A DNA stretch of 64,000 bases from Elusimicrobiota bacterium (GCA_044450965.1 JBIOJO010000002.1:21246-85245); one strand, 5' to 3'; shown: positions 50,915-56,362, numbered from the stretch's first letter. Numbers and translations: made by a program. The notes: a model not told the origin generated them from the sequence alone.

Positions 50915-53900
50915 TCATGAGAGCCATACCCGGAGAACCGCCAGGAGTTGGTCCACGTCCACCGGCTTCGGGATGTAGTCGGAGGCTCCGGCCTGGATGC
51001 ACTTCTCACGGTCGCCCTTCATCGCCTTGGCCGTCACCGCGATGATGGGGAGTCCCCGGAATTTCTTGTTTTTGCGGATCTCCTGCATGGCCTCATACCC
51101 GTTCATCTCGGGCATCATCACGTCCATCAGGACGATATCGATGTCCGAGACCCTCTCCAACGTCTCGATCCCCTTGCGGCCATTGTCCGCGTTCAACACG
51201 CGCATCTGATAGCGTTCGAGCACGCTCGTGATCGAGAAGAGGTTTCGGATGTCGTCGTCCACGACCAGGACCTGGCGTCCGGCCAGGACCGGGTCGCTCT
51301 GCCGGGGCTTCGCCGCCTCATCGCGCGGCAACGCCAGCGGCGGCGCGATCCGGTGGAGAAACAGATCGGTCTCGTCCACCAGGTGCTCTGGGGACTGCAC
51401 CAGCTTGGCGACGGACTGACGCGACGCGTGCCGCAGGCGCATCTCTTCCTCCCGCGGCAGCTTGCGGCCGGAATAGATCAGAAGTGGAAGCTGACTGAGC
51501 CGCGGCTCCCGCGCCAGCCGGCTCAGCAGGCCGGCGGCATCGGGGACGGCCGCGTCGATGATCGCGCACTGATAGGTCTCGGCATTCAAGCGCCGCAGCG
51601 CCTCGGCCCCATCCTTGGCGGTGGCCATGCGGACTCCGTCGTCGCCGATCAACTCCAGAATGGAACGCCCGCAGGCCTCGTCGTTTTCCACCAGCAGCAG
51701 GCTCCGCTCGGGATTGCGGACGAAGGCCACGAGCTTGGACAAGCTGGCGCTCAGCGTCTCGCGCGTGGCGGGCTTTTCCAGGTAGCCGACGGCGCCCATT
51801 TTGAGCGCGCGTCGCTCCTCGTCCGGGGCGCCCGACATGATCAGCACCGGGATATGCCGGAGGGCCGGGTCGTGCTTCAGGGCGTCCAGAACCATCCAGC
51901 CCGTCATGTCGGGAAGGCGCAGGTCCACGACGGCGGCCTGCGGGCTGAACAGGCGCGCCGTCGCCAGCCCGGCGTCGCCTTGGAGCGCGACGACGCCCTT
52001 GAAGCCCTGTTCCCGGGCGCTGTCCAGCATCAACCGGGCGAAGATGGGATTGTCCTCCACGATCAGCAGGACCAGGTCCCCGGGATTGATCGCGTCGCGG
52101 TCGTCGTCCACGGCGGCCACCGGCAGGGGCGTTACCGGAGGCGAATCTTCGACGGTCTCGACCGGCTCCGTCGTCGGCGGGGCGTCGGGCGCGCGGCGCC
52201 GCGCCTGTGCCTTCAGCGCGGCGCCGGACCACGGCAGGTAGAAGGTGAAGGTGCTGCCGCCTCCCGAGGAACTCCGCACGCGGATCTCTCCGCCCAGGAG
52301 ACGCGCTATCTCCCGGCTGATCGTCAGGCCCAGGCCGGTGCCGCCGTACTTGCGGTCGGTGCCGCCGTCCACCTGCTGGAAGGCCTCGAAGATGATCGCT
52401 TGCTTCTCCTCTGCGATGCCGATTCCGGTGTCGCTGACCGAGAAGGAGATCAATGGGCCGGCGCCGCGGACGGATTCCGGCGATGCGTCCTTTTCCGCGG
52501 GCTCGATTCGAACGGTGACGCTCCCCTTTTCCGTGAATTTGAATGCGTTTGACAGGAGGTTGCGGAGGACCTGCTGAAGCCGCTTCGAGTCCGTGCTGAG
52601 GGTCTTGGGCAGGCCGTCGGCCAGCTCGATCTTGAACGCCAGGTTCTTGGACTGTGCCAGCTGTCCGAAATTGCGCTCCAGGTCGTTTTTTAGGCTGGAA
52701 AGGGCGATCGGCTGGATCTCGATGGTCATGGCTCCCGCTTCGATCTTGGAGAGGTCCAGGATATCGTTGATGAGAGCCAGCAGGTCGTTGCCGGCCGCGC
52801 AAATGATCTGCGCGTACTCGATCTGCTTGGGGCTGAGGTTCTTCTCCAAGTTGTCGGCGAGCTGCCTCGCCAGAAGCAGGAGGCTGTTGAGAGGCGTGCG
52901 CAGCTCGTGAGACATATTGGCCAGGAACTGCGACTTGTACCGGGACGTCAGAGCCAGCTGCTCGGCGCGGTCCTGCAGGGTCTGACGCGCCTGCTCGACC
53001 TCGCTGTTCTTGCTTTCGACCTCCTTCTTCTGAGCCGACAGAAGGACGGCCTTCTCCTCCAGGTCCTTGTTCTTCTCCTGCAGTTCCTGCTGCTTGCGCT
53101 GAAGCTGCTCGGTCAGGGACTGGGATTGGGCCAGCAGGTCCTCGGTTCGCATCGTGGCCGCGATGGTGTTGAGCACCACGCCGATGGACTCGGTGAGCTG
53201 GTCGAGGAAGGCCAGCTGAACCTCGGTGAACGAGTTGAACGAGGCCAACTCGACCACGGCCTTCACCTTGCCTTCGAACAGCACCGGCATGGTGACGATG
53301 CTGAGCGGCGCCGACGCGCCCAATCCGGAGCGGATGCGGACGTAGTCGGGGGAGATTCCGGTCATCAAGATGCGCTTTTTCTCCAGCGCGCATTGGCCGA
53401 TCAGTCCCTCGCCCGAGGCGAACTCCTCGGCGGGGCTGATCGCGCGGCCCTTGTGCGCGTAGCTTGCCAGCAGGCGCAGGCGCGGTTCGCTCTCCTCGCC
53501 GATATTCACGTAGAAGACGCCGCATTGCGCGAAGACGACGGTGGCCAGCTCGGAGAGGATCGTCTGGCAGACGGTGTTGAGGTCCTTCTGCCCTTGCATC
53601 ATGGACGCGAACTTCGCCAGGTTGGTCTTGAGCCAGTCCTGCTCCACGTTCTTGCGCGTGGTCTCGCGCAGGTTGCGGATCATCTCATTGATGTTGTCCT
53701 TGAGCGCCAGCACCTCTCCCTGCGTCTCGACGGTGATCGAACGGGTGAGATCTCCCTTCGTCACGGCCGTGGCGACCTCGCCGATCGCGCGCACCTGGGT
53801 GGTCAGGTTCGCGGCCAACTGGTTGACGTTCTCGGTCAGGTCCTTCCAGATGCCGGCCGCGCCGGGCACCTTGGCCTGGCCGCCCAGGCGCCCCTCGGTC

Positions 53901-56362
53901 CCGACCTCGCGGGCCACCGTCGTCACCTGGTCGGCGAAGATCGCGAGCGTGTCGATCATCTCGTTGATGGTCTGCGCCAACGCGGCGATCTCGCCGCGCG
54001 CCTCGAGCACCAGCTTGCGGCGCAGATTGCCGTTGGCGACGGCCGTGACGACTTGGGCGATGCCGCGCACCTGGCTGGTGAGGTTGCTGGCCATGGTGTT
54101 CACGTTGTCGGTGAGGTCCTTCCAAGTGCCGGAGACGCCCTTCACCTGGGCCTGGCCGCCCAGCTTGCCGTCGGTGCCGACTTCGCGGGCCACGCGGGTG
54201 ACTTCCGAGGCGAACGAGCTCAGCTGGTCCACCATCGCGTTGATCGTGTTCTTCAGGCGCAGTATTTCTCCGCGCACGTCCACGGTGACCTTTTTCGAGA
54301 GGTCGCCCTTGGCCACGGCGTCGGTGACCTCGGCGATGTCGCGCACCTGGTTGGTCAGGTTGCCGGCCATGGTGTTGACGTTGTCGGTGAGGTCTTTCCA
54401 GGTGCCGGAGACGCCCTTCACCTGCGCTTGACCTCCCAGTTTTCCCTCGGTGCCGACCTCGCGGGCCACGCGGGTCACTTCCGAGGCGAACGAACTGAGC
54501 TGGTCGACCATCGCGTTGATCGTGTTCTTGAGTTCCAGGATCTCGCCTTTCACGTCCACCGTGATCTTCTTGGAGAGGTCGCCCTTGGCCACCGCGGTCG
54601 TCACTTGCGCGATGTTTCGAACTTGATTGGTCAGGTTGCTGGCCATGGTGTTGGCGTTGTCGGTGAGGTCCTTCCAGGTGCCGGACACGCCCTTCACCTG
54701 GGCCTGGCCGCCCAGCTTGCCCTCGGTGCCGACCTCGCGGGCCACGCGCGTGACCTCCGAGGCAAACGAGCTCAGCTGGTCCACCATCGCGTTGATCGTG
54801 TTCTTGAGTTCCAGGATTTCGCCGCGCACGTCCACCGTGATCTTCTTGGAGAGGTCGCCCTTGGCGACGGCGGTGGTGACCTTGGCGATGTTGCGCACCT
54901 GATTGGTCAGATTGCTGGCCATGGTGTTGACGTTGTCGGTCAGGTCCTTCCATACGCCGGACACGTCGCGGATGGCGGCCTGCCCGCCCAGCTTGCCGTC
55001 GGTGCCGACTTCGCGCGCGACGCGGGTCACCTCGGAGGCGAAGGTGCTGAGCTGGTCCACCATCGCGTTGATCGTGTTCTTCAACTCCAAGATCTCGCCC
55101 TTCACGTCCACGGTGATCTTCTTGGAGAGGTCGCCCTTGGCCACCGCGGTGGTGACCTTGGCGATATTTCGCACCTGGTTGGTCAGGTTGCTGGCCATGG
55201 TGTTGACGTTCTCGGTGAGGTCCTTCCACACGCCGGAGACGTCGCGGATCGCCGCCTGGCCGCCGAGCTTGCCGTCGGTGCCGACCTCGCGGGCCACGCG
55301 GGTGACCTCCGAGGCGAAGGTGCTGAGCTGGACGACCATCGCGTTGATGGTGTTCTTCAATTCCAGGATCTCGCCCTTCACGTCCACGGTGAACTTTTTG
55401 GACAGGTCTCCGTTCGCGACGGCGGTGGTCACCTGGGCGATATTGCGCACCTGGTTGGTCAAGTTGCTGGCCATGGTGTTGACGTTGTCGGTCAGGTCCT
55501 TCCACGTGCCGGAGACTCCCTTCACTTGGGCCTGGCCGCCCAACTTGCCGTCGGTGCCGACCTCGCGGGCCACGCGGGTGACCTCGGAGGCGAAGGAGCT
55601 GAGCTGGTCCACCATCGCGTTGATGGTGTTCTTCAATTCCAGGATCTCGCCCTCGACGTCGACCGTGATCTTCTTGGAAAGGTCGCCTTTGGCGACGGCG
55701 GTGGTGACCTGCGCGATGCTGCGCACCTGGCTGGTGAGGTTGCTGGCCATGGTGTTGACGTTGTCGGTGAGGTCCTTCCAGGTACCGGACACGCCCTTCA
55801 CCTGGGCTTGGCCGCCCAGCTTGCCTTCGGTGCCGACCTCGCGGGCCACGCGGGTCACTTCGGAGGCGAAAGAGCCCAGCTGGTCGACCATCGTGTTGAC
55901 GGTCCGCGCCGTGCGCAGGAACTCGCCCTTCATTGGACGACCGTCGATCTCCAGGCCGATCTTTTGGGAAAGATCGCCCTTGGCCACGGCGCCGATCACG
56001 CGGGAGACCTCGGTGGTCGGCCGCACCAGGTCCGCGATCAAGGTGTTCAGGCAGTCCACGCACGCTGCCCACGACCCGCCCACGCGGCCCAAATCCGCCC
56101 GGCGGCGGATCTTGCCTTCCTTTCCGACGGACTCGCTGATCTGCTGGAGCTGGTGCGCCAGCCGGCGATTCAATTCGAAGATCGCTCCGATCTCGGCGGA
56201 GAGTTCGCGGTCATCGGGACGTTCCGGTTTGGGCGGGACAACGGCGAAGTGTCCGCGGCGAAACGCGCGCAAGGTCCGCACCAATTCCCGCCGGTATTCC
56301 CGCTTCGAGCTGCGGCGGGGTCCCCGTTTTCGGCCTCGTGCGGCGCGGGCTGTCGTCGGCAT
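50915..56362 (-). CDS. Giant cytoplasmic hybrid sensor kinase (1815 aa): basic N-tail, nine tandem HAMP units, GAF, coiled coil, HisKA, HATPase_c and three receiver domains
   Basis: Nine repeats of the ~92-aa unit ...[95 protein letters not shown] starts at [23 protein letters not shown]-box [18 protein letters not shown]2 box [18 protein letters not shown]. Three receivers follow. Start trimmed to ATG 56362 because the upstream OmpR-type gene ends at 56431. Confidence 0.85.
53530..56014 (-). repeat. Tandem near-identical ~276-bp DNA repeats encoding the HAMP array (about nine copies)
   Basis: Off-frame and antisense ORFs in the track repeat the same peptide strings (for example [16 protein letters not shown]...), which shows high nucleotide identity between units. 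Confidence 0.6.

Follow-up and report, generated by a model that had tools for sequence, protein, structure and literature searches.

The 64,000-nucleotide stretch of Elusimicrobiota bacterium DNA analyzed here (GCA_044450965.1, JBIOJO010000002.1:21246-85245; hereafter the window) carries on its minus strand, at positions 50915-56362, a gene that we take to encode a soluble AskA-like class III (poly-HAMP) hybrid histidine kinase. We assign a probability of roughly 0.85 to this reading, which includes the rod mechanism proposed for such kinases and is drawn from sequence. The kinase is a genuine, intact and typical member of a family that has already been defined, surveyed and partly crystallized. 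Its open reading frame (ORF), whose continuity was a point on which the original prediction for this gene depended, is uninterrupted and begins at an ATG at position 56362 within a maximal ORF spanning 50915-56707. The 1815-aa product is the same in sequence and length as a protein deposited at NCBI (P0086) as 'MAG: HAMP domain-containing protein [Elusimicrobiota bacterium]', where MAG stands for metagenome-assembled genome.

The domain order of the protein is a basic N-terminal tail, nine 92-aa repeats, a GAF domain, HisKA, HATPase and three receivers (Table 1). A Pfam scan returned nine HAMP stretches, GAF_2, HisKA, HATPase_c and three Response_reg matches, in agreement with the GAF domain, the HisKA domain with its SHELRTPL motif, the HATPase and the three receivers of the original prediction. 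The absence of transmembrane segments and the basic character of the tail, both also predicted, hold as well. The highest 19-residue Kyte-Doolittle window, which falls within the GAF domain, scores 1.56, and the first 25 residues include 11 K/R and a single D/E. No sensory domain precedes the array, as just the 21-aa tail lies before HAMP1, and Pfam detected neither a PAS domain nor an MCP signal domain in the kinase. The linker between the GAF and DHp domains has a heptad-like charged composition that suggests a coiled coil; an OmpH-like match to this segment falls below threshold (17.9 bits, cut-off 32.4) and carries no weight. The H-box with His1152 and the N, G1, F and G2 boxes are all intact.

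A search of solved structures placed two entries, both titled 'histidine kinase, Gcn4p', far above all others: 9trk (residues 20-302, E 2e-119) and 9trj (residues 19-210, E 6e-67). The two crystallized constructs comprise six and four HAMPs, respectively, of Myxococcus xanthus AskA (Coles et al., Protein Sci 2026, PMC13446029). The kinase aligns with the first six HAMPs of AskA without gaps, with identities of 36% over HAMP1-2, 82% over HAMP3-4 and 89% over HAMP5-6. Kinase-associated poly-HAMP arrays consist of a D1-type canonical HAMP followed by di-HAMP repeats, each made of a non-canonical (C) and a canonical (D2) domain (PMC13446029), and parsing the present array in 46-residue steps gives this same pattern, namely D1 followed by nine C-D pairs, for a total of 19 HAMP domains. 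The original prediction of nine near-identical HAMP units of about 92 aa is thus correct as to the number of units, but each unit is a di-HAMP rather than a single HAMP. The canonical HAMP at aa 22-67, which precedes the nine units, is missed by Pfam, and its designation as D1 rests on its position and on the 36% identity to AskA HAMP1-2. The non-canonical HAMPs are likewise undetected by Pfam and were assigned via the AskA alignment. The Pfam families HAMP and HAMP_2 were considered as marks of the two alternating domains and rejected, as both overlap on the same canonical HAMP.

The array is highly regular. Nine VAKGDL-type anchors recur at a spacing of 92 aa (97 aa for the first), and Tandem Repeats Finder reports a 276-nt period over positions 53747-55899 (7.8 copies, 83% matches, no indels). 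Among internal units 2-7, identity is 85-96% in protein and 83-89% in DNA. A G-x-W motif is present at aa 96, 193, 285, 377, 469, 561, 653, 745 and 837, one in each of the nine non-canonical HAMPs, and HAMP3 carries a proline kink (RPTTEV) and a linker that is 5 aa longer, both of which align with the AskA equivalent. In the published description of the family, the HAMP3 proline and linker insertion are conserved in AskA-like arrays, the di-HAMP modules are often near-identical within one protein, and a tryptophan is conserved at the junctions; the array is followed by a GAF domain, a DHp domain, a catalytic domain and at least one receiver, in a soluble protein that lacks an upstream sensor (PMC13446029). 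Every one of these features is found at the sequence level in the Elusimicrobiota kinase. Pfam matches of the SpoIIID, HTH_6, RHH_6, ATG17-like and PseudoU_synth_1 types within the array (aa 96-900) were set aside, as no stretch passes alone. All of these matches recur in all relatives and look like noise caused by the repeats; the same partial 'HTH' matches have been proposed as DNA-binding elements in AskA and AskB (PMC7643160).

The closest characterized likenesses are AskA (MXAN_0712) and AskB (MXAN_6735), which are also soluble, contain a D1 HAMP followed by 92-aa di-HAMP modules with the HAMP3 proline kink, linker insertion and junction tryptophans, continue into GAF, DHp and CA domains and three receivers (AskA has Rec3), and are encoded beside other hybrid kinases. 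The present kinase differs from them in that its second receiver is degenerate, its host is labelled an Elusimicrobiota MAG rather than a myxobacterium, its gene neighbors encode a MASE1 kinase, a REC-PAS kinase and small receivers, and nothing ties it to development or ambruticin. A second group with similar organization is the fungal group III kinases (Nik1/Os-1/TcsC/Drk1), which are soluble and combine an N-terminal array of 92-aa di-HAMP units with HisKA, HATPase and a receiver; the internal units described here share about 74% identity with those of Mucoromycota proteins. Classical fungal group III kinases have a single receiver and signal via the HPt protein Ypd1 to the HOG pathway, and the Mucoromycota matches list no GAF family in precomputed Pfam annotations. 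With its GAF domain, its three receivers and no HPt domain in the ORFs scanned, the kinase was rejected as a fungal group III type. Multi-HAMP receptors such as Aer2 resemble it in having concatenated canonical and non-canonical HAMPs with helices that are continuous between domains, but their HAMPs are few, diverse and interrupted by PAS domains, and their output is that of a chemoreceptor. Poly-HAMP arrays have been explicitly set apart from these receptors (PMC13446029), and the 19 contiguous near-identical HAMPs and the lack of PAS and MCP domains rule out an Aer2-type receptor here.

The original prediction described the kinase as an extreme example, but the view that it is an exceptional outlier in array length and receiver number can hardly be maintained. 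A profile built from units 2-8 was used to count units in the 120 best database relatives. These belong to Acidobacteriota/Bryobacterales, Burkholderiales, Ramlibacter, Archangium, Hyalangium, Verrucomicrobiales and Planctomycetes, among other groups, and match the query at 59-66% identity over 96-99% of its length. With 8.7 units by this count, the present kinase is the minimum of the sample, the median being 14.7, and the array is longer in all 119 of the others, reaching about 20 units in bacteria and 24 in Mucoromycota fungi. The published counts for AskA and AskB are 21 and 31 HAMPs, respectively, versus 19 here (PMC13446029). What speaks for an outlier is a second sample, obtained by searching the non-repeat GAF region against 1.84 billion 50%-cluster representatives (9008 matches at E <= 1e-10). 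The matches are mostly fragments or relatives with short arrays. Among the best 150 of them, 29 have both the D1-type N-terminus and the GAF region, and these complete arrays contain 0.5-12.4 units (median about 3.3), 27 of the 29 being shorter than that of the kinase. Neither sample is unbiased. The first is ranked by bit score, which favors long arrays, while in the second we infer that long-array proteins collapse into few 50% clusters and are under-counted because they are so conserved (about 60-65% identical across phyla). Array length varies widely in the family, and nine units are mid-range to longish and not an outlier. Three receivers are the usual state of the family and nothing special to this gene, as they are found in 92 of 121 proteins (the 120 relatives and the query), with five or six in some.

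Active sites of the receivers were read by alignment to CheY at positions 12, 13, 57, 87 and 109. The question of which receivers keep the phospho-accepting Asp, raised together with the original prediction, has a simple answer, as all three do; the REC2 site is otherwise incomplete, having lost one metal-binding Asp (D13N) and the conserved Lys (K109Q). REC2 is intact (EDDTK) in 60 of the 92 three-receiver proteins, while the REC3 signature DDDTK is present in 91 of 92 such relatives. Middle receivers are degenerate in the closest lineage too, and more strongly so in Bryobacteraceae proteins with five or six receivers. With its degenerate site, REC2 more likely serves as a regulatory or docking module.

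A different concern is that assembly of the genome from a metagenome wrongly expanded or collapsed a tandem repeat, which would make the nine-unit array an artefact. The 276-nt repeat does lie in a MAG contig, and the closest relative has a different number of units (11 versus 9). Any two internal units differ, however, at 29-46 of 276 nt, the longest stretch of DNA repeated exactly within the array measures 43 nt, which is below typical short-read length, and the frame is unbroken by indels across the array. Substitutions between internal units are mostly synonymous (mean dS, the synonymous divergence, 0.55; mean dN, the nonsynonymous divergence, 0.069), the pattern of real, selected copies, and the internal units are under purifying selection. 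Furthermore, end units can be matched between the two proteins, as described below. Because the unit copies are old, selected and distinguishable by short reads, an assembly artefact is very unlikely, and expansion was rejected as an explanation on the grounds of unit divergence, the 43-nt limit on exact repeats and dN/dS.

The closest relative, P0053 (L001, 8001-14015), is a protein of 2004 aa with 11 units and 81% identity to the kinase. Toward the ends of the array the two proteins agree closely, with identities of 93% for the first unit, 98% for the penultimate and 100% for the last, while their interior units have no one-to-one correspondence. Changes in unit number thus take place in the interior of the array, between orthologous end units. 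Within P0053, unit 3 matches unit 8 at 100% identity and unit 4 matches unit 9 at 98%, which indicates a recent segmental duplication with a five-unit offset inside the array. More broadly, di-HAMP units are 85-88% identical within the protein, 81-83% identical to units of Bryobacterales, Archangium and Ramlibacter proteins and 74% identical to fungal units. As unit similarity between phyla nearly equals that within the protein, the near-identity of the units appears to be due for the most part to strong purifying selection toward a single consensus, and to a small extent to amplification or homogenization.

How might such a protein signal? By analogy with the AskA crystal structure, to whose segments it is 82-89% identical, the kinase would be a dimer whose 19 HAMPs (aa 22-900) join into an unbroken four-helix coiled coil. 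Along this rod the canonical and non-canonical types would alternate, with each G-x-W tryptophan bracing a domain junction. In the gearbox/dynamic-bundle model, the two alternating types of HAMP relay the signal in a zig-zag manner, either as axial helix rotations of opposite sense or as changes in bundle stability (PMC13446029). A conformational change would then pass along the HAMPs to the GAF domain and through the helical linker to the DHp domain, where it would tip the protein toward autophosphorylation of His1152 or toward phosphatase activity. Kinase and receiver function is predicted from the intact catalytic motifs and active sites, and the phosphoryl group would be transferred to Asp1480 of REC1 and/or Asp1747 of REC3. 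Candidates for the input are a ligand of the GAF domain, a physical cue sensed by the rod, which can be likened to the osmosensing proposed for fungal group III kinases, and binding by the basic N-terminal tail. Bacterial poly-HAMP systems have been called poorly characterized (PMC13446029).

Several points weigh against this account of the gene as an AskA-like kinase with a signaling rod. HAMP1-2 is just 36% identical to AskA, the poly-HAMP signaling model is still a hypothesis in its source paper (PMC13446029), and the role of the kinase and its close relatives is a predicted one. No HPt domain was found in about 50 ORFs scanned in the window, a scan in which ORFs below about 100 aa or with low G+C content at third codon positions were incompletely covered. 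The gene neighborhood is unconserved in distant relatives, though other two-component proteins adjoin the homologues there. In Archangium, a REC-GAF-HK-REC gene lies upstream and a CheR gene downstream, while a Bryobacterales homologue is followed by genes for a REC-PAS kinase and a receiver that are 23% and 28-31% identical, respectively, to those described here. A partner module conserved across phyla was therefore rejected, as these identities reflect shared architecture with no demonstrable orthology and Archangium differs.

An alternative possibility is that the protein acts mainly as a nucleoid- or DNA-associated scaffold or phosphatase, in which the basic tail anchors the rod to DNA and the receivers dock partner kinases. 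The concentration of K/R in the tail would suit such a role, and the tail of P0053 is basic too (9 K/R in 29 aa). Promoter DNA is bound in vitro by both AskA and AskB, the AskC receiver is a binding partner of AskA Rec3 (PMC7643160), and a basic N-terminal extension of FrzCD binds DNA (cited in PMC13446029). The degeneration of REC2 and the lack of an HPt domain in the ORFs scanned also fit this idea. It is nevertheless unlikely, as the kinase has kept all its catalytic motifs and intact active sites in REC1 and REC3, and the mechanism of AskB DNA binding is described as not established (PMC13446029). In addition, the N-terminal tail is variable or absent across the family, being short, neutral or acidic in many relatives; it is not family-defining, and a basic tail was ruled out as a family feature. 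A related and equally doubtful idea, which keeps the protein as a signaling kinase, is that the 21-residue tail tethers the tip of the rod to DNA or an anionic surface, that binding at the tip is the input passed down the array to the kinase, and that the number of internal di-HAMP units tunes the response. If this were true, members of the family would make up a class of soluble sensors coupled to the nucleoid, and the gene cluster described below would be a compact system in which to test poly-HAMP function.

Table 1. Positions in the window of the poly-HAMP kinase gene, its encoded domains and the neighboring two-component genes (CDS, coding sequence).
Feature	Position	Strand	Basis
Poly-HAMP hybrid histidine kinase, complete CDS	50915..56362	-	Uninterrupted ORF, 1815 aa; identical to NCBI protein P0086
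Basic N-terminal tail, aa 1-21	56300..56362	-	Residue composition
19-HAMP array, aa 22-900: D1-type HAMP1 and nine non-canonical/canonical di-HAMP modules	53663..56299	-	AskA alignment, 46-aa parse, Pfam, Tandem Repeats Finder
GAF domain, aa 926-1064	53171..53587	-	Pfam GAF_2 2.9e-15, GAF 7.3e-09
Charged helical linker GAF-DHp, aa 1065-1142	52937..53170	-	Read from sequence
HisKA/DHp, aa 1143-1210, phospho-acceptor His1152 in SHELRTPL	52733..52936	-	Pfam HisKA 3.4e-18
HATPase_c catalytic domain, aa 1258-1377, N/G1/F/G2 boxes present	52232..52591	-	Pfam 9e-30; motifs located
REC1, aa ~1431-1550: E1436, D1437, D1480, S1510, K1530; active site complete	51713..52072	-	CheY alignment
REC2, aa ~1555-1680: E1559, N1560, D1603, S1631, Q1656; degenerate	51323..51700	-	CheY alignment
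REC3, aa 1698-1810: D1702, D1703, D1747, T1777, K1799; active site complete	50933..51271	-	Pfam, CheY alignment
Membrane MASE1-HisKA-HATPase kinase, 823 aa, first cluster gene	58946..61417	-	Pfam MASE1 5.9e-42; conserved in L001
REC-PAS-HisKA-HATPase kinase, 487 aa, 16-nt overlap with MASE1 kinase gene	57498..58961	-	Conserved in L001
Stand-alone receiver, 121 aa, ATG 57520 with GGAGG upstream	57155..57520	-	Pfam Response_reg 1.6e-23
OmpR-type regulator (REC and Trans_reg_C), 223 aa, 68 nt upstream of kinase	56431..57102	-	Response_reg 1.1e-22; also in L001
Stand-alone receiver, 140 aa, 11 nt after kinase stop	50481..50903	-	Pfam Response_reg 1.1e-20; site DD/D/T/K; also in L001
Convergent stand-alone receiver, up to 160 aa	49995..50477	+	Response_reg 4.3e-22; site complete; L001 counterpart

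The kinase gene belongs to a cluster of six genes in series on the minus strand and a seventh that is convergent (Table 1), and all seven recur in unchanged order at the L001 locus of the closest relative. The four receiver genes that the original prediction placed nearby are all present, and the active sites of all four small receivers are complete (D/D/T/K, read from the translation, for the one at 57155-57520). The latter gene overlaps the upstream REC-PAS kinase gene by 23 nt, as does its counterpart in L001. The Trans_reg_C match of the OmpR-type regulator is weak, at 26.2 bits, exactly at the cut-off. The receiver gene that follows the kinase is probably co-transcribed with it. AskA, AskB and AskC interact and control development, with AskA Rec3 contacting the AskC receiver (Marcos-Torres et al. 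2020, PMC7643160), and by analogy the cluster proteins may form one multi-kinase network, of which the OmpR-type regulator would be the transcriptional output. A branched phosphorelay, as suggested originally, is reasonable but not demonstrated, and the route from the internal receivers to the separate ones is undefined because no HPt domain was found in the scanned ORFs of the window.

The 68-nt gap before the kinase contains the sole sigma-70-like match in positions 49900-61700, TTGATA-17-CATAGT at 56369-56397 on the minus strand. The -10 element stops 6 nt short of the kinase ATG (56362) and there is no Shine-Dalgarno sequence, so the gene may be transcribed separately, perhaps as a leaderless mRNA. 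A region of this size should contain one match of this kind by chance, and the closest relative keeps just the TTG of the -35 element. Immediately beyond the cluster, positions 46000-50000 have a G+C content of 0.59-0.63, compared with 0.65-0.72 around them, and contain genes for an AAA_14/DUF4143 ATPase (48044-49453, minus strand) and a DUF4329 protein (49366-49959, plus strand) and an unannotated 443-aa ORF (46611-47942, plus strand). At the syntenic place L001 has ETF genes, and the patch may be an inserted island.

Other genes of note on the plus strand of the window lie outside the cluster. At 181-1109 is a two-component pair, in which a receiver (720-1109) follows an HATPase_c ORF (181-723) that may encode the C-terminal portion of a longer kinase. 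The maximal ORF at 7485-8960 contains a receiver (aa 195-306) and a 4HBT thioesterase domain (aa 358-478) and represents either two neighboring genes or a response regulator with an unusual output. A TonB/Tol-like cluster at 28615-35154 encodes a 1326-aa TPR-rich protein followed by ExbB/MotA, ExbD and TonB_C proteins.

Much of what the kinase displays has already been published for its family, including the architecture, the near-identical di-HAMP repeats, the GAF-kinase-receiver output, the wide taxonomic spread and the structures of AskA segments. The present example is of modest value as a family member from an Elusimicrobiota-labelled MAG, and for the finding that unit number differs between close relatives, 9 versus 11, while the end units stay orthologous. 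The compact cluster in which the gene is found, with two further kinases and four receiver proteins encoded beside it, five of the six on the kinase strand, could serve as a tractable system for studying the family.

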